A stretch of 64,000 bases of DNA from Kofleriaceae bacterium (GTDB taxonomy: Bacteria; Myxococcota_A; Polyangia; Haliangiales; Haliangiaceae): contig CBDCCZ010000019.1 of assembly GCA_965215005.1 (NCBI GenBank), forward strand, positions 64,001 to 128,000, written 5' to 3'. Position numbers and translations under genes: made by a program. This document shows positions 2,514 to 59,588 of the stretch, piece by piece. The notes beneath the pieces are model-generated. The model ran no database searches. It had not been told where the DNA came from and saw nothing but the letters and a program-made list of their open reading frames with translations. How positions within the stretch are numbered: position 1 is the stretch's first letter; each line of letters begins with the position of its first letter.

Positions 2514-2842
2514 GCAGGCGGGCCTGCGATGCTTGAAGGGGGTGCCGCGCCTGCCGTCTCTACGTCGTGGAGGGGGGGGGTGACGGAGACGGCAGGCGGG
2601 CCTGCGATGCTTGAAGGGGGTGCCGCGCCTGCCGTCTCTACGTCGTGGAGGGGGGGGGGGTGACGGAGACGGCAGGCGGGCCTGCGATGCTTGAAGGGGG
2701 TGCCGCGCCTGCCGTCTCTACGTCGTGGAGGGGGGGGTGACGGAGACGGCAGGCGGGCCTGCGATTCTTGAAGGGGGTGCCGCGCCTGCCGTCTCTACGT
2801 CGTGGAGGGGGGGGTGACGGAGACGGCAGGCGGGCCTGCGAT
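2514..2842. repeat. Tandem ~78-bp hairpin repeat, 4 full copies plus a partial one
   Basis: Units start at 2514, 2592, 2672, 2749, 2826; nearly identical apart from a G-run of 9/11/8/8; internal stem CGCCTGCCGTCTC...GAGACGGCAGGCG. Confidence 0.95.
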
Positions 2843-31231: not shown

Positions 31232-31559
31232 CGTCGATCCATCGTCTGCTCTGGCTCATCCACCACCAAGACCGGCACGAAGCCGCCCGTTCCCGCAGTC
31301 GATCTTGCAAGCGGCTCCGAGCTAAGCCTCTTGCGCCATTACTGAATTCGGTGCGAAGCCACCCCTGTTCGACGCGAATAGCCGGCGTCACTTTCGCCGC
31401 TCGCCGCCAAACTCCTCCAACATCGCCGCACCCTCCGCCGCGCTCCACCGCCCGGCGGGGCAGGGTCTTGTCCCTGATCTCGATCTCGTTGATGGTTCAT
31501 GCCGTCGTACTGACCATGAAGCCGCCCATCGCAGTAGGTGCGGGAAGTCGGGCGGATAC
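31232..31559 (-). mobile_element. Truncated, diverged IS66 left end with tnpA pseudogene
   Basis: Reverse complement starts GTATCCGCCCGAC like the full copies; matches tnpA to CAGACGATGGATC; TAT>TAA nonsense codon. Confidence 0.85.
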
Positions 31560-33140
31560 CGCTAATCCTTAGCTAGAGAAGATTGCACGCTACAGTTGAC
31601 GCAGCGACTTTCTGGATGGCTTCAGGCGCGCTCGGAAGCCAAGGAAGTTGCTCCGTAGACCACGCGACGACACTGCCGTCTTCCGATCCTGTTATTACAG
31701 AAGAGTCTTGCATGCGAACAAACAGAACCGGCTGATGATGAGCTCCAATCGCAGCGCGACGCCCAGTATTCAGGTCCAGAAGAGTCACGCGACCAGATTT
31801 ATGGCCGACAGCGAGCACGTCTCCGGTGCGTGAGAGATCAACGGTAGTAGCGCTTGCAAATGGAGGAAGAGGAATCGATGTGTCACTTATCAGGTCACGT
31901 ACGAGCAGCTCACCGTCACTAGCAAGGGATGCGAGACGAGAGCCATCTTCGCTTATTACTGTGAAAACTACCGGTGCGGCGTGAGTATGTGCGTAGCTCA
32001 ACTCCACAGAGTCACCTAGACGGAACGTAGTCACACGACCCTCGCCGTCCCCCTGTGCTGCTGTGGAAGAACTACGACGCAATGCACTGGATGTGGAGCC
32101 GCCCCTGAGCCTGAAGACCTCGCGCCTGCGGCCATCACGCAGCAGTATCGCAGCGACTGAGCCATCACCTGCGGCAACGAGAAGTTCCCGATCATCACGA
32201 AAAAACTGTAGCTCTCGGACAGTCGAACTGAGCCTGCCAACCACTCTCTCCTCACCGCTCGCCAAATCGACGATTCGAATCTCTCCTTCGCTAGAAGAGA
32301 CCGCCAAATGTCTTTCATCGGCAGAAAACACAATCCCCGTCGCCGACGCCGCAAAGCGGCCCAGAGTTCGAATTTCGCCGGAATCAAATTCAATGAGAGC
32401 ATAGCTACCATCACGGCCTACGATGCCGACGTCGCGGCCGGAGGGTGATAGGCGCGCGCGCATGCTCTGGCTCACGGGGGTGATAGTCCGTCGGAGACCC
32501 GCTTGACGATCCCACAAGAGCAAAGCCCCCGTACTAGCTCTTGCCAAAATCCGCATTGTGCTTTCGCTGGTCTCCAGCCAATGGATCGGCTGCGATTGCT
32601 GAAGCCCAACCTCAGCAACCGGTGGAAGCTTCCAGACACGGGCAGTGCCATCGGCGGAGACAGAGACTGTAGTGCGAGCGTCGGAGAAAAAATCAACAAC
32701 ATGCGCAGTCGTGGTGTGCCCCTTCAGAACCTGACGGGTCTTTGAAATGAAGTCTCCGATGATCAACTCTCCACTCGCCGAGGCGGCGATAAAGAAGCGG
32801 CCATCCGCTGAAATCCGAGCTGCATAAAATCCCGCGGGTTCAGCTAGAAATTCATCCGGCCTCACGAAGTCATCGAGAGCCCAGGCTAACACGCGCCCAT
32901 CACTGCCAAACGTGATCAGTTGCCGCTCAGCCTCCCGAAACTGCGGTATAGCGGTTGAAGAATGTCCAGCCAAGTGCTGGCACTCCCCCGTTTTCAGTCG
33001 ACACACGCTGATACGCGGATCACTAAACGATGTGGCTGCGACAAGACCAGACTTCGGCTCGAACTCGAGGTACATCAGCTCGTATCCGCCCGACAGCCCG
33101 CACCTACTGCGACGCGCGGCTTCATGGTCATTAGGAGAGC

Positions 33141-33530
33141 ATGAAGCATCAACGAGAGCGAGATCAGGGCCAACCAGCTGCCCCGCCGAGCGGGCGTGCG
33201 CGGTGGAGCGCGGCGGAGGGAGCGGCGATGTTGGAGGAGTTGGCGGCTAGCGGCGAGAGTGACGCCGGCTACTCGCGCCGAACCGGGGTGGCTTCGCACC
33301 GAATTCAGTATTGGCGCAAGAGGCTTAGCTCGGAGCCGCGTGCGAGATCGATGGCGGGAACGGGCGGCTTCGTGCCGGTCCTGGTGGTGGATGAGCCAGA
33401 GCAGACGATGGATCGGCGGCAGGTCGAGGTCACGCTACGAACTGGCGCAACGATGGTGTTTCGTGGCGACTGGAATGCGGTGTCGCTACGGCCTTGGATG
33501 GCAGTCTTGGGAGGCGACCATGCTGAGTAA
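33141..33530 (+). CDS. tnpA: IS66 accessory protein TnpA
   Basis: HTH-like SGESDAGYSRRTGV..IQYWRKRL, FVPV. Confidence 0.85.
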   Translation: MKHQRERDQGQPAAPPSGRARWSAAEGAAMLEELAASGESDAGYSRRTGVASHRIQYWRKRLSSEPRARSMAGTGGFVPVLVVDEPEQTMDRRQVEVTLRTGATMVFRGDWNAVSLRPWMAVLGGDHAE

Positions 33531-33858
33531 CCGTGCCGCGCGCGTCTTTGCGTATGCGTCGCCGTGTGACATGCGCAAGCAGATGGATGGGCTGTCGACG
33601 CTGGTGCGCGAACAGCTCGAGCGGGAGCCAGAAGGTGGCGACCTGTATCTGTTTCGCAACCGTCGCGGCGATATGATCAAGATCTTGTTCTTTGATCAAG
33701 GCGGGTACTGCCTACTAAGCAAGCGGCTGGTGAAGGGCACGTTTCAGATGCGCCTTTCGATCAAAAATGATCAATGCGCTGCTGAGATAACGCAAGCGGA
33801 GCTAAGTCGACTGCTTACGCGCGCTGAGTTGGTGCAAGAGATGTCGCAAAGCACTTGA
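33520..33858 (+). CDS. tnpB: IS66 accessory protein TnpB
   Basis: PCDMRKQMDGL, LYLFRNRRGDMIKILFFD, KRLVKGTF. Confidence 0.92.
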   Translation: MLSNRAARVFAYASPCDMRKQMDGLSTLVREQLEREPEGGDLYLFRNRRGDMIKILFFDQGGYCLLSKRLVKGTFQMRLSIKNDQCAAEITQAELSRLLTRAELVQEMSQST

Positions 33859-33886
33859 ACTTCGATCCGCCGCCTGCTAGCGAAGA

Positions 33887-35494
33887 GTGCAGGTGACGGC
33901 AGCGCGCACAGAGGTTCACGAGGCACTTGAGGCGCTCGATGCGCTTCGAGACAAGGTGAGCGACGCGGAACGCGCGACGGTGGATCGCATCATTGCTCTG
34001 CTGAGCTCGCTCGGAGACGAGGTGTCCGAGCTCAGCGAGCGCGTGCGATGGTTGATCGGCGCACCATATCGCAAGAAGGCTGAAGCGGTGCCCGCTGGAC
34101 AGTTAGCGCTGGATCTGTTGAATGTGCTCGCCTTCAACCGCGAAGTGACTTCCCCGGAGCCAGTGGAAGTTGAACGCAGCGCGCCGGCAAAGCCAAAACA
34201 GAAGCGAGTGCGTCGTGGCAAGGAGCTACGTGTCGAGGTGGTCGAAGCACGCCTCACTGGCGACGAGCGTAACTGCGGCTCGTGCGGCAAGACCCGAGCG
34301 GAGCTGCCGCCAGATATCCAGCGGCGAATCATCTTTCAGCCGGCGCAGCTTTATAAGCTGGAAGAGCACCGCTTCAAGTACGCATGTCGGCGTTGCGATG
34401 ACGGCATCGTAACGCCGCCGCCTCAACTTCCTGCAAAGCCCATCTCCGGTAGCATGGCGTCAGCCAGCTTGCTTGCCCATTTGGTGGTTGGCAAAGTGCT
34501 CGATGGTCTGCCGATTGAGCGTATCGCCCGCAGCCTCCGCCGCCATGGTGCAAATCTAGCTGCGTCGACCCTCAACGACTGGTTTGGCGAGACGGCACGC
34601 ATGCTGGCGTTTCTCCATCCGCTCCTGCGAACAGAGCTTCTAAAGTCTAGACTCATCAGTTTGGACGACACACCGCTCAAGGCACAAAGCCGCGGCTCGC
34701 CAAGCGGCAAGACGATGGTGCGCGGCCGTCAATGGCTTTACCTTGGCGACATCAGTCGTATCGCTTACGCTGAATTCAGCGAAGACTGGAAAGGAAAGCA
34801 CCCTCGCGCCGTGCTTTCCGAGTTTTCCGGAAGCATCCAAGGCGACGGCTATGGCGGCATCAATCCACTATTCGCCCGCGATGGTGGACCTATCCGCGTC
34901 GGCTGCAACGACCATGCACGCCGCAAATTCGTGGCTGCGCTCGAGCAAGGCGATCGACGAGCCCAGCCGATCGTCGACATCTACAAAGCACTCTACGCCA
35001 TCGAACGCGAGGCTAAAGAGCGCGGGTTAGATGACGTGGGGCGGGGCACGCTGCGCGCTGCCGCGTCGGTGCCGACCTGGAAGCGGCTCACAGAGGCCGT
35101 TGCCAAACTCGCGCCGCAAGCAGGCAGCAAGAGTCCATTGGGCAAAGCCGTCGTCTACTTTCAGCGCCAGCTGCCAACACTCGAGGTCTTTCTTACCGAC
35201 GGCTCGCTGCCCATCTCCAATGCTCACGTCGAGCGCCGGCTGCGCACCGTCGGCATCTTCCGCAAAAACTGCCTCTTCGTCGGCAGCGTCGAGGCAGGTC
35301 AGCGCTTTGCCATCCTCCTCTCGCTCGTTCTCCAGTGCGAGCTCGACGGCGTCAATCCCTACGACTACTTCGCCGACGTCATCGACAAAATCGCTAACGG
35401 CTGGATGATGAGCCGCGCCCCTGAGCTCCTGCCACGCGCCTGGCTCGCCGCCCGCGAGTGCCCAGAGCAGCCCGCCGGCGATACTCTCTCCTGA
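33887..35494 (+). CDS. tnpC: IS66 DDE transposase TnpC
   Basis: CGSC..CRRC zinc finger, LDDTP, QGDGYGG, CNDHARRKF, SNAHVERRLR, ELLP. Confidence 0.95.
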   Translation: MQVTAARTEVHEALEALDALRDKVSDAERATVDRIIALLSSLGDEVSELSERVRWLIGAPYRKKAEAVPAGQLALDLLNVLAFNREVTSPEPVEVERSAPAKPKQKRVRRGKELRVEVVEARLTGDERNCGSCGKTRAELPPDIQRRIIFQPAQLYKLEEHRFKYACRRCDDGIVTPPPQLPAKPISGSMASASLLAHLVVGKVLDGLPIERIARSLRRHGANLAASTLNDWFGETARMLAFLHPLLRTELLKSRLISLDDTPLKAQSRGSPSGKTMVRGRQWLYLGDISRIAYAEFSEDWKGKHPRAVLSEFSGSIQGDGYGGINPLFARDGGPIRVGCNDHARRKFVAALEQGDRRAQPIVDIYKALYAIEREAKERGLDDVGRGTLRAAASVPTWKRLTEAVAKLAPQAGSKSPLGKAVVYFQRQLPTLEVFLTDGSLPISNAHVERRLRTVGIFRKNCLFVGSVEAGQRFAILLSLVLQCELDGVNPYDYFADVIDKIANGWMMSRAPELLPRAWLAARECPEQPAGDTLS

Positions 35495-37822
35495 GGCCAG
35501 AGCGTCGGCGTCCCCGTCCTCGGCGGCTCTTCCTGGTTCACTACATCTCACGCCTGCCTTTTCGCACGGCCGCACCGCCTTAGGCAGGTGCGCGCTGTCG
35601 GGCGCTTACATCAGCTCTTCAAATTGAGTGGAGAACGTCCTCCAGCCGCCGCTGCGCAAGTCCAACACGCCTACCATGCCCTCCAAGCCCCCGCATATCA
35701 CTGTCTGAGCATCGGGGGAGAACGCGGCGCAGATAACCCACTTTTTGAACGGACGCGTAGAAGAGAGAATGCCCTTAGCGGGATCGATCACGACGACCTC
35801 GCCACGCTCAGTACCCACTGCAAACAGCTGGTGCGGGGCCGCAGCGGCGACAAGGCTCCGAGGAGGGGACGGCAACTTCCACGACGTCACCTCGTTTGAA
35901 TCGAAGGCCCATGATTCGGCAGTACCATCCGCGTGCACGGAGACCAATAAACGTTCTCCAAGGAAGCCGAGTCGCACGGCTGGAGAATCAACAGCGCGGC
36001 TAGCGACGAGCCGTCGGGCCCTAGCATCCCAAACCTCGATCTTCTTATGACCTGTTGCGATGTATCGATCATTGGGGTGAACTGCAACGTCTATGAAGAA
36101 GTTGTTGGGGTTGAGCGCCGGCACGCTGATGGTGAGTGTCGCTACGCCTTCGGCGAAGGCATCAGCCAACACTTGCTGCGCAGCGGCGGGCTCAGCATCG
36201 ATGACACTGGGGAACTCGTGAAGGAGCTCGATGGCGCTCGTTGGCGCCGTGGAGACCAAGTTGTTTGCCTGTAGCAACACGAAGCGATTGCGCTCCGTTT
36301 CCGCGGCTACTTTCTCGCGGGCGGCGATGCTTCGCTGACGCTGCGCCTCGTTTCGTTCCTCGACGACTCGTGCGACCGCAAACGCTCCGACGAGAAGCGC
36401 AGCGAGCAGGCCCGTGGCGATGGCTCCCAGTAGTGTTCTGTGGCCGGCGATCCATCGCCTCGCCAGGTCGTGCCATGAGTAGACGTGAGCTCCGACCAGC
36501 TGGCCGTCTTGAAAACGGCGAAGATCGGCGGCGAGCTCAGCGCCGTTTGCATAGCGCTCCGACGGGTCCCGCGCCATCGCTCGAGTGATGATAGCGACCA
36601 GTCCCACCGGAATCGGCTGGCTTACGACCATGGCGATATCGGCGGGTGCACCGCGGCGGACGGCTTCGACGATCTCCTTTGGTTCACTGCTAGCGATGTC
36701 GGCGTAGGGGCGCGAGCCGCAAACGATCTCGTAAAGAATTGCGCCCAGCGCGTAAACATCGGTCGGCTCGGCAACCTCATGCCCTGCGGCTTGTTCGGGC
36801 GACATATACGCGGGAGTTCCCACGACCTCGCCGTAGATCGTGACCGTATCGCTTACCGGCACGTCATTGGAGAAGTGCTCATCTTCCGATTGCGCTTGGC
36901 CTCGCAAGTCCTTCGCCAAGCCCCAGTCGATGACGACGGTCTCACCGTATTCACCGAGGATGATGTTGGCGGGCTTGAGGTCGCGATGGATGATGCCTTT
37001 GCTGTGGGCATAGGCGATTGCATCCGCGACGGCGAGCACGTTTGGAAGCAGCCGGAGGCGCGCTTCTAGTCCATCGCACGACCCGATCACCTCTTTTAGA
37101 GACCGGCCCGCGACGAACTTCATCGTGTAGAACATCTCGCCATCTGGCCGGCAGCCAGCATCGTGAACGGGCACGATTGCGGGATGTTCTAGACGAGCGG
37201 TGATTCGCGCCTCGCGCACAAATCGCGCTTCGGCACGATCACTGCGGTGCAATAGTTCCTTCACCGCGATAGGGCGGCCGAGGTCGCGGTCGTAGGCGAT
37301 TAGCACGCGGCCTAGCCCGCCCTGCCCGTGCACGGGTCCTAACTGATAACGCTGAGACTCCCGTAGCGGAAGCCGTTCACCAAGCGCTCGAGCCGACGGC
37401 AATGCGTCATCGGGCATCGCGGTGGAAACCGTCTGAGCATCGTCCTGCTGCGTCAGCGTCCGATCGCCGCCCGTATGCAACGTGGTGCGCTTCACCGCTG
37501 AAACCGAGGCGTGCCGTGCGGGTTGGAGTCAAGCATATTTCGCGATGCCCCTCCTCTACGGACAGTCTCGTCTGTCGACAGTGCTGGCCTCGAAGAGTTT
37601 GCGAATGCTGGATGCCACAGAGGTGCAACAGGTTGCAACCAGCAATTGCTTAGTCGGTCCCCGGCTGGCCACGGAGAGGTGATCAACAACAAGTCCCGCC
37701 ACGCCTCTGCCGCGAAAACGGTTACGCCAGCAGGAACACGCTTCGCGTGCAGACACGGCTTCGCTACGTGCGACATTCGCTCGCTCGACTGAAGCGCTGC
37801 GGCGCAGGTGCTGGAAGGGCGC

Positions 37823-54108: not shown

Positions 54109-54426
54109 ATGTACGCCGTCATTGAAACAGGTGGAAAGCAGTACCGGGTGGAGCCTGGCCAGACCATTGTGGTCGAGAAGCTTGAAGGCACTGCCGGGGA
54201 CGCTATCCAATTCGAGAAAGTCCTATTGGTTTCTGGCGACGAGAGCGTCGCGGTTGGGCGGCCACTCGTCGAAGGGGCTCGCGTCACTGGACAAATCGTC
54301 GAGCAGGGCAAGGGGCAGAAGCTGATCGTCTTCAAGCTCAAGCGCCGCAAGGACTATCGCCGAAAGAATGGCCATCGGCAGCAGTACACCGCGGTCAAGA
54401 TCAACGACGTGGTCGCGCCCGCTTAA
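54109..54426 (+). CDS. rplU: 50S ribosomal protein L21
   Basis: MYAVIETGGKQYRV, GHRQ. Confidence 0.98.
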   Translation: MYAVIETGGKQYRVEPGQTIVVEKLEGTAGDAIQFEKVLLVSGDESVAVGRPLVEGARVTGQIVEQGKGQKLIVFKLKRRKDYRRKNGHRQQYTAVKINDVVAPA

Positions 54427-54447: not shown

Positions 54448-54720
54448 ATGGCTCATAAAAAAGGTCAAGGATCGACCCGCAACGGTCGTGACTCCGAGTC
54501 AAAACGTCGCGGCGTGAAGCGTTACGACGGGCAAGTAGTTCGCGCCGGCAACATTCTCGTTCGGCAGTGCGGCACGAAGGTCCATCCTGGCAACAACGTC
54601 GGGACTGGCAAAGATTGGACCCTGTTCGCGCTAGTCGATGGCCAGGTGCGCTTCGAGCGCCAAGGCAAGGGCGGCAAGCGGGTGTCCGTATATCCTGTAG
54701 AGACTGCCCCGCAGGCCTAA
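54448..54720 (+). CDS. rpmA: 50S ribosomal protein L27
   Basis: [16 protein letters not shown]. Confidence 0.98.
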
Positions 54721-54776: not shown

Positions 54777-54813
54777 GCCCCGGGTGCCGTCGTTGCTGCG
54801 CCCGGGGCTCTTT
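54777..54813 (+). terminator. Probable intrinsic terminator after rpmA
   Basis: GCCCCGGGTGC...GCGCCCGGGGC followed by TCTTT. Confidence 0.6.
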
Positions 54814-54892
54814 ACGTTTCGGTCGCAGCGCCGGACGGAGCCGATGAGTCGCCATCACCGGCGCAGATAGCTGCGTCTATCCGACTGCAGCC

Positions 54893-55398
54893 GTTCAACT
54901 CTAGACGCGATGAATCGGTTTGCGATCCCTTCCGCTCGAGCGATGAACGGATTCGACATCCCTTCACCTCACTCCAACGGTGAACGGATTCGAGATCCCT
55001 TCACATCTAGACGTGATGAACGGATCTGCAATCCCTTCAACCTCGACGCGATGAATGGATTTGCGATCCTTCACCTCACTCCAACGGTGAACGGATTCGA
55101 GATCCCTTCACCTCTAGACGCGATGAACGGATTTGTGATCCCTTCACCTGTTGACGCGTTGAACGGATTTGCGATCCCTTCACCCTCGACGCGATGAACG
55201 GATTTGTGATCCCTTCACATCTAGATGCGTGGACGGGTTTGCGATTCCTTCACCTCCTTGGCGCGTTGAACGGATTTGCGATCCCTTCACCTCCTTGACG
55301 CGATGAACGGATTTGCGATCCCTTCACCCTCGACGCGATGAACGGATTTGTGATCCCTTCACATCTAGATGCGTGGACGGGTTTGCGATTCCTTCACC
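54893..55398. repeat. Tandem hairpin array, left part (14 units)
   Basis: Core TGAACGGATTTGCGATCCCTTCA at 54911, 54944, 54981, 55017, 55052, 55088, 55124, 55160, 55195, 55230, 55267, 55304, 55339, 55374. Confidence 0.95.
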
Positions 55399-55457
55399 GT
55401 ATCCGCCCGACAGTCCGCACCTACTGCGATGCGCGGCTTCATGGTCAGTAGGAGGGC

Positions 55458-55847
55458 ATGAAGCATCAACGAGAGCGAGATCAGGGCCAATCAGCTGCCC
55501 CGCTGGGCGGTCGTGCGCGGTGGAGCGCGGCGGAGGGAGCGGCGATGTTGGAGGAGTTGGCGGCTAGCGGCGAAAGTGACGCCGGCTATTCGCGCCGAAC
55601 AGGGGTCGCGTCGCACCGAATTCAGTATTGGCGCAAGAGGCTTGGCGCGGAGCCGCTTGCAAGATCGATGGCGGGAACGGGCGGCTTCGTGCCGGTCCTG
55701 GTGGTGGATGAGCCAGAGCAGACGATGGATCGGCGGCAGGTCGAGGTCACGCTGCGAACTGGCGCAACGATGGTGTTTCGTGGCGACTGGAATGCGGTGT
55801 CGCTACGGCCTTGGATGGCAGTCTTGGGAGGCGACCATGCTGAGTAA
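55458..55847 (+). CDS. tnpA: IS66 TnpA
   Basis: Near-identical to 33141..33530. Confidence 0.85.
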   Translation: MKHQRERDQGQSAAPLGGRARWSAAEGAAMLEELAASGESDAGYSRRTGVASHRIQYWRKRLGAEPLARSMAGTGGFVPVLVVDEPEQTMDRRQVEVTLRTGATMVFRGDWNAVSLRPWMAVLGGDHAE

Positions 55848-56175
55848 CCGTGCCGCGCGCGTCTTTGCGTATGCGTCGCCGTGTGACATGCGCAAGCAGA
55901 TGGATGGGCTGTCGACGCTGGTGCGCGAACAGCTCGAGCGGGAGCCAGAAGGTGGCGACCTGTATCTGTTTCGCAACCGTCGCGGCGATATGATCAAGAT
56001 CTTGTTCTTTGATCAAGGCGGGTACTGCTTACTGAGCAAGCGGCTGGTGAAGGGCACGTTTCAGATGCGCCTTTCGATCAAAAATGATCAATGCGCTGCT
56101 GAGATAACGCAAGCGGAGCTAAGTCGACTGCTTACGCGCGCTGAGTTGGTGCAAGAGATGTCGCAAAGCACTTGA
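55837..56175 (+). CDS. tnpB: IS66 TnpB
   Basis: Same protein sequence as 33520..33858. Confidence 0.92.
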   Translation: MLSNRAARVFAYASPCDMRKQMDGLSTLVREQLEREPEGGDLYLFRNRRGDMIKILFFDQGGYCLLSKRLVKGTFQMRLSIKNDQCAAEITQAELSRLLTRAELVQEMSQST

Positions 56176-56203
56176 ACTTCGATCCGCCGCCTGCTAGCGA
56201 AGA

Positions 56204-57811
56204 GTGCAGGTGACGGCAGCGCGCACAGAGGTTCACGAGGCACTTGAGGCGCTCGATGCGCTTCGAGACAAGGTGAGCGACGCGGAACGCGCGACGGTGG
56301 ATCGCATCATTGCTCTGCTGAGCTCGCTCGGAGACGAGGTGTCCGAGCTCAGCGAGCGCGTGCGATGGTTGATCGGCGCACCATATCGCAAGAAGGCTGA
56401 AGCGGTGCCCGCTGGACAGTTAGCGCTGGATCTGTTGAATGTGCTCGCCTTCAACCGCGAAGTGACTTCCCCGGAGCCAGTGGAAGTTGAACGCAGCGCG
56501 CCGGCAAAGCCAAAACAGAAGCGAGTGCGTCGTGGCAAGGAGCTACGTGTCGAGGTGGTCGAAGCACGCCTCACTGGCGACGAGCGTAACTGCGGCTCGT
56601 GCGGCAAGACGCGAGCGGAGCTGCCGCCAGATATCCAGCGGCGCATCATCTTTCAGCCGGCGCAGCTCTATAAGCTGGAAGAGCACCGCTTCAAGTACGC
56701 ATGTCGGCGCTGCGACGACGGCATCGTAACGGCGCCGCCTCAACTGCCTGCAAAGCCCATCTCCGGTAGCATGGCGTCAGCCAGCTTGCTTGCCCATTTG
56801 GTGGTTGGCAAAGTGCTCGATGGTCTGCCGATCGAGCGTATTGCCCGCGGCCTCCGCCGCCATGGTGCGAATCTAGCTACGTCGACCCTCAACGACTGGT
56901 TTGGCGAGACGGCACGCATGCTGGCGTTTCTCCATCCGCTCCTGCGAACAGAGCTTCTAAAGTCTAGACTCATCAGTTTGGACGACACACCGCTCAAGGC
57001 ACAAAGCCGCGGCTCGCCAAGCGGCAAGACGATGGTGCGCGGCCGTCAATGGCTTTACCTTGGCGACATCAGTCGTATCGCTTACGCTGAATTCAGCGAA
57101 GACTGGAAAGGAAAGCACCCTCGCGCTGTGCTTTCTAGTTTTTCCGGCAGCATCCAAGGCGACGGCTATGGCGGCATCAATCCGCTATTCGCCCGCGAAG
57201 GTGGACCTATCCGCGTCGGCTGCAACGACCATGCACGCCGCAAATTCGTGGCTGCGCTCGAGCAAGGCGATCGACGCGCTCAGCCGATCGTCGACATCTA
57301 CAAAGCACTCTACGCCATCGAACGCGAGGCTAAAGAGCGCGGGCTAGATGACGTGGGGCGGGGCACGCTGCGCGCTGCCGCGTCGGTGCCGACCTGGAAA
57401 CGGCTCACAGAGGCCGTTGCCAAACTCGCGCCGCAAGCAGGCAGCAAGAGTGCATTGGGCAAAGCCGTCGTCTACTTTCAGCGCCAGCTGCCAACACTCG
57501 AGGTCTTTCTTACCGATGGCTCGCTGCCCATCTCCAACGCCCACGTCGAGCGCCGGCTGCGCACCGTCGGCATCTTCCGCAAAAACTGCCTCTTCGTCGG
57601 CAGCGTCGAGGCAGGTCAGCGCTTTGCCATCCTCCTCTCGCTCGTTCTCCAGTGCGAGATCGACGGCGTCAACCCCTACGACTACCTCGCCGATGTCATC
57701 GACAAAGTCGCTAACGGCTGGATGATGAGCCGCGCCCCTGAGCTCCTGCCACGCGCCTGGCTCGCCGCCCGCGAGTGCCCAGAGCAGCCCGCCGGCGATA
57801 CTCTCTCCTGA
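56204..57811 (+). CDS. tnpC: IS66 transposase TnpC
   Basis: 535 aa; 9 substitutions versus copy 1 by my comparison. Confidence 0.95.
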   Translation: MQVTAARTEVHEALEALDALRDKVSDAERATVDRIIALLSSLGDEVSELSERVRWLIGAPYRKKAEAVPAGQLALDLLNVLAFNREVTSPEPVEVERSAPAKPKQKRVRRGKELRVEVVEARLTGDERNCGSCGKTRAELPPDIQRRIIFQPAQLYKLEEHRFKYACRRCDDGIVTAPPQLPAKPISGSMASASLLAHLVVGKVLDGLPIERIARGLRRHGANLATSTLNDWFGETARMLAFLHPLLRTELLKSRLISLDDTPLKAQSRGSPSGKTMVRGRQWLYLGDISRIAYAEFSEDWKGKHPRAVLSSFSGSIQGDGYGGINPLFAREGGPIRVGCNDHARRKFVAALEQGDRRAQPIVDIYKALYAIEREAKERGLDDVGRGTLRAAASVPTWKRLTEAVAKLAPQAGSKSALGKAVVYFQRQLPTLEVFLTDGSLPISNAHVERRLRTVGIFRKNCLFVGSVEAGQRFAILLSLVLQCEIDGVNPYDYLADVIDKVANGWMMSRAPELLPRAWLAARECPEQPAGDTLS

Positions 57812-57926
57812 CGCCAAAGCGCCGGCGAGCCCGTCCTCGGCGGCTCTTCCTGGTTCACTACATTTCACCCCCGCCTTTTCGCACGGCCGCACCGCCTTAG
57901 GCAGGTGCGCGCTGTCGGGCGCTTAC

Positions 57927-58502
57927 CCTTCACCTCCTTGGCGCGTTGAACGGATTTGCGATCCCTTCACCTCCTTGACGCGTTGAACGGATTTGCGATC
58001 CCTTCACCCTCGACGCGATGAACGGATTTGGGATCCCTTCACATCTAGATGCGTGAACGGGTTTGCAAATCGTTCACATCTAGACGCGCTAAACGATTTG
58101 CGATCCCTTCACCTCCTTGACGCGTTGAACGGATTTGCGATCCTTCACATCTAGACACGTTGAACGGATTTGCGATCCCTTCACTGCGCTCCGATCCCAT
58201 TCGCTCCACGGTGAATAGATTCGCGATCCGTTCAGCTCACGCCACGATGAATCGACTCGCGACACGTTGACCTCTCGCCGGCGGTGAACTGAATCCAGCT
58301 CTGAGTCTGGGCGTTATGAACGGGGCCGAGTTTTGTTCACTCATCGGCACGGCACCCCATCGCAGTAGTGCTGAATGGATTCGTCAGAGGTTCACTCGTC
58401 GACGCTTCACCGGGTGCTGCTGCGACTGTGTCTCCAGGGGCTCGAATCGGTGAGTACGGAGACATAAGGAGGAATTCGGTGAATGATTTCGTCAAACGTT
58501 CA
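57927..58502. repeat. Tandem hairpin array, right part (7 good units, then ~6 degenerate units)
   Basis: Cores at 57947, 57984, 58019, 58054, 58090, 58126, 58161; degenerate units, mostly TGAA-N15-TTCA, at 58212, 58248, 58285, 58317, 58372, 58480. Confidence 0.9.
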
Positions 58503-58583
58503 CGTCATGGTCGCTTCGCCGGCGGTGAGACTTGACCTCGACTGGGCTAGGGCCCTAAACGCGTAGCGAAAGAGGTCGCCCTC

Positions 58584-59588
58584 ATGCATTTCATCGATGA
58601 TGCCAAGGTTCACGTAAAGGCCGGAGACGGTGGCAACGGCTGCGTGGCGTTTCGCCGAGAAGCGCACGTTCCGCGCGGCGGCCCTGCCGGGGGCGACGGG
58701 GGCGACGGGGGCAGCGTAATCGCCGTCGCCGACCCTCAGCTTTCGACGCTGCTCGACTTCAAATACAACCGTCATTATCGAGCCGAGCGAGGCGAAGATG
58801 GCCGCGGCAAGGATCAGTACGGCAAGACCGGTTCGGACCTGATCCTGAGAGTCCCCGTCGGCACCGTCATCCATGATGCGGAGACGGGGCATCGCCTGGC
58901 CGACCTAGACCAGGCTGACGCTCGCTTCGTGATCTGTCAGGGCGGAAAGGGTGGGCTCGGCAACATCCACTTTTCGACTCCATGGAATCAAGCGCCAAGA
59001 GACTCCTCGCCGGGCACTCCGGGCGAAGAGCGGCACGTGCGCTTCGAGCTCAAGCTGATGGCGGATGTCGGGCTTCTCGGCTATCCGAGTGTGGGCAAGT
59101 CGACGTTCATCTCCAAGGTCTCGCGAGCGCGCCCGAAGATCGCCGATTATCCATTCACCACTCTGGTGCCGAACCTCGGGATGGTTCGGCTCTCCGATGA
59201 CCGTTCACTCGTTGTCGCCGATATCCCTGGCCTCATTGAAGGCGCCGCGGACGGCGCCGGACTGGGTCATCGGTTTTTGCGACACGTGGAGCGCACCCGC
59301 GTCCTGCTGCACATCCTTGAGGATTCGTTGACCGCGGGTCCTGAGCGCAACCCCCAAAAGGATTTCGACACGCTCAACGCCGAGCTCGCCAAGTATGCGC
59401 CCGAACTGGCAGCGAAGCCGCAGGTGGTGGCACTTAATAAAGTGGATCTCACCGAGACTCGTGACAGCGCCGATGCATTGACGAAAGCCTTCGCAGCCCG
59501 CGGGATCGACCTGCACCTGATATCAGCCGCCACGGGTGAGGGCATTCCGCAGCTCCTGGAGCTCATCTGGCACACGGCTCGGGCGTAG
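58584..59588 (+). CDS. obgE: GTPase ObgE/CgtA
   Basis: Gly-rich Obg fold, GYPSVGKST, YPFTTLVPNLG, DIPGLIEGA, NKVD. Confidence 0.98.
   Translation: MHFIDDAKVHVKAGDGGNGCVAFRREAHVPRGGPAGGDGGDGGSVIAVADPQLSTLLDFKYNRHYRAERGEDGRGKDQYGKTGSDLILRVPVGTVIHDAETGHRLADLDQADARFVICQGGKGGLGNIHFSTPWNQAPRDSSPGTPGEERHVRFELKLMADVGLLGYPSVGKSTFISKVSRARPKIADYPFTTLVPNLGMVRLSDDRSLVVADIPGLIEGAADGAGLGHRFLRHVERTRVLLHILEDSLTAGPERNPQKDFDTLNAELAKYAPELAAKPQVVALNKVDLTETRDSADALTKAFAARGIDLHLISAATGEGIPQLLELIWHTARA

Follow-up and report, generated by a model that had tools for sequence, protein, structure and literature searches.

A minisatellite of predicted TetR operators between rpmA and obgE of a Kofleriaceae bacterium as a candidate natural DNA sponge

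E. coli datA and the DnaA-box clusters of B. subtilis are conserved titration loci, those of the datA type consisting of a few boxes and concerning the replication initiator. The natural decoys described in PMC8599769 are dispersed, mostly intragenic sites, and the decoy sites treated in PMC7505660 raise the expression of an auto-repressed transcription factor and of the targets of that factor. In the synthetic DNA sponges presented in PMC7686491, arrays of 10-80 tetO altered the output of the circuit. Within the TetR family, FadR of B. halodurans is described to bind as a dimer of dimers, its TGAATGAA half-sites being nested at a distance of 4 bp (PMC5397183). Here we report on an array of 23-bp dyads in the genome of a Kofleriaceae bacterium, located in a window of 64,000 nucleotides (the whole stretch of DNA that was analysed, to which all positions refer unless a contig is named).

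The dyad array and its IS66 insertion

The array lies between rpmA and obgE and comprises 21 core and 6 degenerate units (about 25 copies overall). The original prediction treated 54893..58502 as a single non-coding array, overlooking that 2,528 bp of these 3.6 kb are an IS66 element. The features of the region are the following:

54109..54426, + strand: rplU (L21), PF00829, E 4e-42
54448..54720, + strand: rpmA (L27), PF01016, E 8e-37
54777..54819, + strand: GC-rich hairpin with a U-rich tail, possible rplU-rpmA terminator, present in the MFE fold (z -2.0)
54892..55398, no strand: left sub-array, 14 operator-like 23-bp units with starts from 54911 to 55374 and linkers of 10-14 nt
55391..55398 (left) and 57927-57934 (right): 8-bp target duplication, copies flanking the IS66 element
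55399..57926, + strand: IS66-family element, 2,528 bp, terminal inverted repeats; one of its three + strand ORFs encodes a 535-aa transposase
55458-55847, + strand: tnpA-like ORF of the IS66 element, no Pfam match
55837-56175, + strand: tnpB of the IS66 element, PF05717
56204-57811, + strand: tnpC of the IS66 element, PF03050, PF13005, PF13817
57927..58183, no strand: right sub-array, 7 units with starts from 57947 to 58161
58212..58502, no strand: degenerate tail, units at 58212, 58248, 58285, 58317, 58372 and 58480
58532..58561, + strand: candidate sigma70-type obgE promoter (TTGACC box), recognized by eye, 29 bp beyond the last unit
58584..59588, + strand: obgE GTPase, PF01018 (E 3e-62) and PF01926

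Elements of the IS66 family are defined by terminal inverted repeats and an 8-bp target duplication. The element at 55399..57926, which splits the array, belongs to this family, as it carries genes for TnpB and a DDE TnpC, inverted repeats and the 8-bp duplication; its domains and its three ORFs are also those of the family, and nothing in it is unusual. Eight full-length copies, this one included, are present in the genome with 97.6-100% identity, along with partial copies; the target duplication is exact in six of the eight copies for which both ends were found, and no common target motif is evident among their insertion sites.

Without the IS, the gap between rpmA and obgE measures 1,327 bp. 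The expectation that rplU-rpmA-obgE is normally compact did not hold in this family: of 24 genomes, only six have the cluster in compact form, nine have 1.9-2.8 kb with other ORFs between rpmA and obgE, and in the other nine it is split, rearranged or unassembled. An origin of the array as a remnant of the gap-filling ORFs of relatives was rejected, as only low-complexity matches were obtained. The terminator call for 54777..54819 is weak because a consensus terminator scan did not pick up the hairpin. The candidate promoter falls below the threshold of a consensus promoter scan, and boxes resembling its TTGACC are also located 5' of obgE in three relatives.

Most of what had been read from the repeats themselves was confirmed. 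Counting units with at most 5 mismatches from TGAACGGATTTGCGATCCCTTCA gives 14 core copies at 54911-55396 and 7 at 57947-58183, in agreement with the 21 or so good palindromes expected; the period is mostly 35-37 bp, and the linkers, from a few related families, are 12-14 nt long except for the first (10 nt) and the last (28 nt). Substitutions are concentrated in the loop (7 of 13 distinct core substitutions lie inside the 5-nt centre), and four of the six degenerate copies keep TGAA-N15-TTCA exactly (58212, 58317, 58372 and 58480, not 58248 and 58285), a pattern that is exact in 19 array units. Three unit-plus-linker types are present in identical copies. A duplication of 144 bp, made up of units 8-11 and units 12-15, extends across the IS site, as supported by a 143-bp exact match of the IS-free sequence to itself at an offset of 144. 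The genome is rich in minisatellites (64 arrays with a period of at least 20 and at least 3.5 copies). The array is far beyond chance, since elsewhere in the 6.2 Mb no two TGAA-Nx-TTCA sites with the same x (8-25) occur within 300 bp. Public contigs of short-read type are identical to the region in five pieces, and none of them joins across the IS site, so that they are uninformative on IS-free alleles; the region was found in one sequencing run, possibly that of the source sample, with no RNA run listed alongside.

A TetR-lon circuit and its predicted operator

On contig C54, unlinked to the array on contig C19, a tetR gene (G000:C54:123007-123594) is located directly upstream of lon. It is an intact ORF of 196 aa with TetR-family matches and a weak match to FadR (E 4e-9, far below the cut-off). 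Three TGAAY-N13-RTTCA sites are found at this tetR-lon locus, two of them overlapping TTGACT-box promoters, and the motif TGAAYGRA-N7-TYCRTTCA is conserved at the promoters of tetR and of its partner lon. Of 26 homologous tetR loci of other Myxococcota, 19 carry TGAA-N15-TTCA; with the locus on C54 this makes 20 of 27, among them all 17 that have lon alongside. These 27 loci hold 36 exact sites, whereas the other spacings from 10 to 20 give 0-4, apart from spacing 11, whose 11 sites are a nested sub-pattern. By comparison, the operator is found at none of 30 lon loci in 15 genomes without this TetR, two 57%-identical lon genes with at most a left half-site being among these loci, and is absent from the three other lon paralogues of the array genome. 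A TetR of this type is present in 5 of 137 family genomes and in 21 of 300 genomes; a pattern search gave no viral homologue, and in three relatives six further sites that may be operators have no clear target in common. We consider it very likely that the TetR is the binder of the conserved tetR-lon operator. The literature searched was not found to describe a conserved Myxococcota TetR-lon circuit with a predicted operator, and such a circuit is in itself one product of this work.

A matrix was built from 31 operator sites of 19 other genomes, leaving the array genome out; it is biased in that its sites were chosen by exact TGAA-N15-TTCA and that the lon sites overlap the -10 box. Its 23 best matches in the genome are headed by the three tetR-lon sites (35.9, 29.9 and 26.0 bits), the other 20 being 19 array units and one site inside an ORF. 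Seventeen array units score 23-25 bits, ten of those in the left sub-array lying at 23.3-24.0, which is within the training range (15.6-34.1), below the native sites and higher than only 8 of the 31 training sites. The four exact tail units, at 58212 (24.5 bits), 58317 (17.1), 58372 (17.6) and 58480 (24.2), keep TGAAY-N13-GTTCA, with G, the commonest base of the operator, at position 19. Of random genomic sequence, 0.27% attains the matrix score of the unit interior, and of random quasi-palindromes 1.6-4.8%. Exact runs of 18 and 15 nt are common to the array and the lon promoters of two other genomes, while none of 3,000 random 53-mers reached 15; likewise, the best blastn match of the IS-free gap to 148 kb of tetR-lon DNA (E 3e-5) falls on a lon operator. 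The similarity of the flanks is not significant, as 14% of random sequences reach it. Judged by sequence, the array consists of predicted operators, given that it has the fixed-spacing TGAAY-N13-RTTCA dyad and that the cognate tetR is intact in the genome. The multi-site protein-binding platform that the original prediction had listed among its candidates is the one that gains support, and the C54 regulator of lon is the likely binder of the array units.

Weighing the readings of the array

The best reading is in our opinion that of an amplified operator array which binds and titrates the TetR repressor, with a probability of roughly 0.6. The array could instead exert local control of obgE, through upstream operators or an inducer-released roadblock to rplU-rpmA read-through, amplification of the core being secondary; this would tie ObgE to the lon regulon. 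The oldest and most diverged units are the nearest to obgE and keep the invariant arms of the operator, and 29 bp separate the last unit from the candidate -35 box. Nevertheless, we hold local control to be unlikely, since native operators mostly overlap promoters or sit just 5' of the gene, which the array units do not, since the exact site is upstream of obgE in none of 29 relatives, TetR carriers G011, G012 and G021 included, and since a terminator-like hairpin and the IS stand in the path of read-through. Just as unlikely, in our estimate, is an inert operator-derived minisatellite, whose amplified variant would bind too weakly to matter and evolve by drift. It would account for a sub-optimal position 19 (C in most units, against 3 of 62 symmetrised training rows), for the presence of the array in one genome with many other minisatellites, for the tolerated IS and for the recent 144-bp duplication. 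It agrees less well with the 13 distinct core substitutions, whose loss of matrix score is below that of random substitutions (P 0.018), with a natural tetR site (L399) that has the same ATCCCTTCA ending as the array units, or with the tail units, which keep 8 of 8 arm bases at an interior identity of ~40-47%, although this conservation is partly circular because the tail units were found by their arms. The outer arms hold 2 of the 13 core changes, too small a depletion for significance (P 0.12), and the variability of the inner 15 positions is uncorrelated with the information content of the operator (rho -0.06). That a neutral quasi-palindromic satellite resembles the TetR operator by coincidence is very improbable: the link was made post hoc, among perhaps hundreds of regulators, and a Polyangiaceae genome without this TetR has an unrelated 3-copy TGAA-N15-TTCA repeat with a similar linker, but here the agreement with the operator extends to arms, spacing, interior and upstream TTGACG box, and among the matches listed, 145 unrelated GTDB/IMG-VR loci where TGAA-N15-TTCA is paired, not one scored as high in both units.

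The remaining readings concern other types of repeat. The array was rightly said not to be CRISPR, its linkers being short (10-14 nt) and repeated, not unique. The genome has cas1 and a 79-repeat CRISPR array on contig C14, to whose repeat the array units are unrelated (alignment no better than shuffles, 154/500); of the matches of its spacers to the region, the 10 listed are all of 9-10 nt. A processed structured RNA array, also proposed originally, now seems very improbable, be it of TIGR or CRISPR type. In its favour, the mean period is ~36 nt, single units taken alone have folding energies of about -5 to -10 kcal/mol, and the three arm changes (units 10 and 14) retain G-U pairs on the + strand. 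Against it, unique spacers are absent, within-unit pairing probability in the full-length fold is only 0.06-0.07, Rfam gave no match, and the search of the genome yielded neither a Nop-domain nor an IS110 protein. The fold predicted for the array is not one of per-unit hairpins; the whole-array folding z-scores (-5.9 and -8.2) were not taken into account, since in any array of dyads the units pair with one another. TIGR-Tas was rejected on the same lines, with no PF01798 or PF02371 match in the 93%-complete genome, rpmA, IS66 and obgE as neighbours, and near-constant unit interiors in place of two variable 8-12-nt spacers per unit. The suggestion of a REP/BIME-like satellite fails, as the unit occurs at one locus only at up to 4 mismatches in the genome; of five PF01797 (RAYT/Y1 transposase) matches none is on C19, and four of the five loci were inspected and lack the unit. 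Neither does the unit fit the parS consensus used for comparison (two parS-like sites are on C54), and its similarity to a dispersed 150-bp element of the genome is no better than that of shuffles (298/500). Contrary to the claim that no long + strand frame survives, the first eight units are crossed by a 95-codon ORF (54910-55197) with no real homologue. A decayed gene for a 12-residue repeat protein, in frame MNGFAIPSPLDA, is the least credible reading. The length of the higher-order unit (144 bp) is divisible by three, and synonymous changes make up 7 of 13 core substitutions where 3.4 would be expected (P 0.014, best of six frames), an excess that is not significant after allowing for six frames. 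Units of 35 and 37 bp, which move the frame into stop codons, speak against it, as do 10 matches (8 inspected, all of them unrelated repeats of low complexity) in 1.84 billion representatives.

A putative sponge and its counterparts

Neither the 137 family genomes nor the 400 phylum genomes yielded a second long operator array, and the degenerate 23-mer has no match in GTDB or IMG/VR. At up to 3 mismatches the 23-mer occurs in 7 of 400 phylum genomes, one isolated match each; the linker motif is matched in 5 of 400 class genomes, twice only in G422. A metagenome scan gave 106 matches, the 80 among the matches listed all being single, and no array was present in the screen of the loci obtained, while a generic TGAA-N15-TTCA tandem scan of GTDB gave at least 115 matches. 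G422 carries beside groEL (L074) a 3-copy 36-bp repeat with a similar linker (0/500 shuffles, the match being partly imposed by the search), which has only 10 bits on the operator matrix; this genome and five others with tandem matches are without a close TetR homologue.

Returning to the titrating operator array, we propose that a ~36-bp piece resembling a lon promoter-operator, with a -35-like TTGACG box and the 23-bp dyad, was its founder, amplified through slippage or unequal recombination and split later by IS66. The box is 3 nt from the dyad in the array units, against 5-6 at native promoters, and the copies therefore keep the operator and lose the promoter geometry. Each unit is probably bound by two repressor dimers (a dimer of dimers). 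The 17-19 medium-strength sites, against 3 native ones, could soak up the repressor, which would raise basal lon and tetR expression or lower their induction threshold. Since the units appear to be amplified copies of a predicted repressor site, the array may be a natural DNA sponge; the preponderance of array sites over native ones (19 to 3 among the top 23) and their separation from the targets (C19 and C54) are consistent with it. The evidence that selection keeps it as a sponge is modest and we only tentatively entertain the idea: a recent IS insertion was tolerated, and drift may suffice because a second long array is absent from the genomes mentioned above. Slightly more speculative still is a chromosomal operator minisatellite acting as a tunable sponge in trans, in which copy number resets the threshold of the Lon circuit and leaves the regulated promoter untouched. 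If this were true, a non-coding minisatellite, known so far from one genome, would tune a distant proteolysis gene through its copy number. A simple screen is suggested, namely of orphan CRISPR-like arrays against the operators of their own hosts.

Among known systems, the TIGR arrays described in PMC12045711 share the ~36-nt period and differ in their variable dual spacers, lacking here, and in their Nop-domain gene, found here neither next to the array nor elsewhere. The nested TGAAYGAA half-sites with a 4-bp offset, the 22-32 bp class and the G-T-x-Y recognition helix are like those of FadR-type operators, although TGAA and TTCA stand 10 nt apart in the FadR site as printed, against an outer spacing of 15 nt in the array units. 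Extra sites would compete for a limited regulator as in the natural decoys and titration loci described; unlike decoys and datA-type loci, this array is a minisatellite of ~25 sites in one genome. With the synthetic tetO sponges it shares tandem TetR-family operators without a working promoter, remote from the target gene; as described, those are engineered and plasmid-borne, whereas this array is natural, chromosomal and imperfect, for a different TetR and with a predicted effect. If the TetR binds it, the array would be a natural counterpart of the operator sponges of synthetic biology.

The array and its IS66 insertion

The repeat array proposed between rpmA and obgE is present, with 21 units at no more than 5 mismatches from the 23-bp dyad TGAACGGATTTGCGATCCCTTCA, but it is not the single uninterrupted span of 54893-58502 originally claimed, since an IS66 element lies inside it:

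54911-55396: left block, 14 units with ≤5 mismatches to TGAACGGATTTGCGATCCCTTCA
55399-57926: IS66 element separating the two blocks, 2,528 bp, with an 8-bp target duplication and Pfam matches to tnpB and tnpC
57947-58183: right block, 7 units with ≤5 mismatches to TGAACGGATTTGCGATCCCTTCA
after the right block, ending at 58502: degenerate tail, 6 units

The genome holds eight full-length IS66 copies that are 97.6-100% identical, and the element is therefore recent; a second full copy in the window (33082-35609) is 97.6% identical with its own 8-bp duplication, and a fragment lies at 31232-31559. Units 8-11 and 12-15 form a 144-bp duplication, 143 bp of which match exactly, and, as it spans the insertion site, array expansion predates the insertion. 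Five pieces of the array region are identical in public contigs from one run, which may be the source sample. In the unit at 58054-58076, the top scorer of the array (25.3 bits), the right half is a closer copy of the left arm than in other units, resembling template-switch correction of a quasi-palindrome. Upstream of obgE, the last tail unit is overlapped by a possible ORF of 18 codons that follows an exact AAGGAGG ribosome-binding motif (58466-58535).

Once IS66 is removed, the rpmA-obgE gap measures 1,327 bp. The cluster had been regarded as normally compact, which does not hold for the family: 6 of 24 genomes show a compact arrangement of the two genes, and in nine they lie 1.9-2.8 kb apart, with reverse-strand ORFs filling the gap (L349-L359). 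The best matches of these ORFs in this genome are just 31-41% identical, and thus they appear lost from it. The suggested search of relatives gave no long array in samples of 137 family and 400 phylum genomes, in which short-read assemblies lose repeats; this genome is the sole representative of its genus among 138 family genomes searched. Its class is also that of a Polyangiaceae genome, which places it in Myxococcota.

The predicted operator motif of tetR-lon loci

Outside the array, TGAA-N15-TTCA occurs at 28 sites in the genome. Three of them extend to TGAAY-N13-RTTCA and are grouped on contig C54 in a stretch of no more than 1.2 kb:

site overlapping the promoter (TTGACT box) of a TetR-family gene encoding 196 aa
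site overlapping the promoter of lon, the gene following tetR
site further upstream of the other two

A search for homologues of this TetR recovered them from 5 of 137 genomes of the family and from 21 of 300 at phylum level. In 27 tetR loci of about 3.5 kb each the motif occurs 36 times, and every other spacing from 10 to 20 occurs 0-4 times, except spacing 11, whose 11 occurrences reflect a nested TGAAYGAA half-site. The site is present in 20 of these loci, including all 17 with lon alongside, and is missing from seven; in one of these, a lon promoter at a distance of 3.3 kb carries a site pair. It was found in none of 30 lon loci (from 51 lon matches; one with only 81 bp upstream) in 15 genomes without this TetR, and therefore the motif tracks TetR. 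Autoregulation is usual in the TetR family and, together with this co-occurrence, leads us to infer that TetR binds the predicted operator.

The tetR-lon locus is conserved across Myxococcota (L376:8600-12276, equivalent to C54:122.6-126.3 kb; L378-L403), with lon downstream of tetR or divergent and the operator common to both promoters; the three exact sites here compare with one or two in relatives. Two parS-like palindromes lie on the same contig (C54:14389 and 14658). Site pairs occur in four of the genomes searched for arrays: at the lon promoter 3.3 kb from tetR, at two isolated places and in the Polyangiaceae genome G422. The latter, which lacks a close TetR homologue, has three 36-bp copies 3' of groEL (L074:2960-3110; G422:C4:171.9 kb), carrying TGAA-N15-TTCA and a linker resembling that of the array.

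Origin of the array and alternative readings

In two family genomes the lon operator reads TGAACGGATTTAGATTTTGTTCA, whose first 11 and last 4 bases are common to the array unit. The training set of a position matrix consisted of 31 sites in 19 other genomes; besides the three native sites, an in-gene site and an overlapping duplicate were excluded. When the 6.2-Mb genome was scanned, 19 of the top 23 hits were array units; the three native sites and a single site within an ORF made up the rest. Seventeen units score 23-25 bits, exceeding 8 of the 31 training sites (10 with a flat background), in a matrix biased by training sites chosen for exact arms and by overlap with -10 boxes; in most units position 19 is occupied by a rare C, and the score falls short of that of the native sites. 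The unit interior, which was unused in site finding, is equalled by 0.27% of random sequences and 1.6-4.8% of random quasi-palindromes. Of 13 promoter contexts, two have a stretch in common with the array letter for letter, of 18 and 15 nt (7-12 nt in the other eleven); none of 3,000 random 53-mers had a run reaching 15 nt. The top Blastn match of the IS-free gap to tetR-lon DNA was a lon operator (E 3e-5); flank similarity between array and operator contexts was not significant.

We consider the array, with a probability of roughly 0.6, to be an amplified operator fragment, predicted to bind and titrate TetR. Such a fragment would most likely have been amplified inside a tolerant rpmA-obgE gap, where the array is flanked by a hairpin resembling a terminator and by a candidate promoter of obgE, both weak and missed by a consensus scan. 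If bound, the array's 17-19 sites against 3 native ones would leave less free repressor. TTGACG stands three bases ahead of the dyad in four linkers, whereas the TTGAC box stands 5-6 bases ahead in 12 lon promoters, and promoter spacing is thus broken in the copies. That the match to the operator is coincidental appears very improbable given the matrix scores. Local control of obgE by the array operators is possible, though unlikely. An inert satellite of operator descent seems about equally doubtful. The genome has 64 tandem arrays (period ≥20, ≥3.5 copies), about eleven apart from this one having a non-triplet period, so that amplification as such is ordinary. The matrix penalty of core substitutions is smaller than that of random changes (one-sided post hoc P 0.018, n 13), while their depletion in the arms (2/13, P 0.12) and the correlation at inner unit positions (rho -0.06) were not significant; in the tail, the three units that have diverged furthest retain 8/8 arm bases and 6-7/15 interior matches, although it was by their arms that they were recognised. 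One young minisatellite-like repeat lies at window 2514-2842 (77 bp, 4.2 copies, 97% identical, variable G run).

A processed structured RNA, one of the candidates originally advanced, is very improbable: a unit in isolation forms a hairpin, but in the whole left block pairing within units has a probability of 0.06-0.07, or 0.28 (+) and 0.59 (-) with pairs restricted to 40 nt, and Rfam gave no match near threshold. Least probable of all is a decayed gene; one of the six frames renders 7 of 13 substitutions synonymous (P 0.014), but the coding frame retrieved no homologue. The REP/BIME candidate likewise fails, since the unit occupies a single locus away from Y1 transposases. A CTAG-bounded, MITE- or REPIN-like element of about 150 bp with two strong hairpins occupies at least 66 places (e.g. 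L210:679-833), at times in tandem (C38:43184-43703), and one copy lies near one of five Y1-transposase-like genes. The statement that the array is not CRISPR stands, its linkers being short and recurring and its unit unrelated to the repeat of the CRISPR array beside cas1 on C14 (150751-156409 and L208, 79 repeats), where the cas1 profile match holds one TAG stop. According to PMC12045711, TIGR arrays require variable dual spacers and an adjoining Nop-domain gene; the array has neither, and this class was rejected.

Comparison with known systems

A known case of titration is datA. In searches at title and abstract level, mainly of the open literature, neither a natural tandem operator array nor this TetR-lon circuit turned up; the operator motif may be on record in regulon databases or supplements. 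The array is known from one genome, and its role is predicted from sequence. FadR of B. halodurans binds as a dimer of dimers to nested half-sites of a similar kind (PMC5397183), which fits the 23-bp array site. Titration by decoy sites is already known (PMC8599769); as described in PMC7505660, when a regulator represses its own gene, such sites raise its expression and that of the genes it targets, and TetR circuits are shifted by arrays with tens of tetO copies (PMC7686491).
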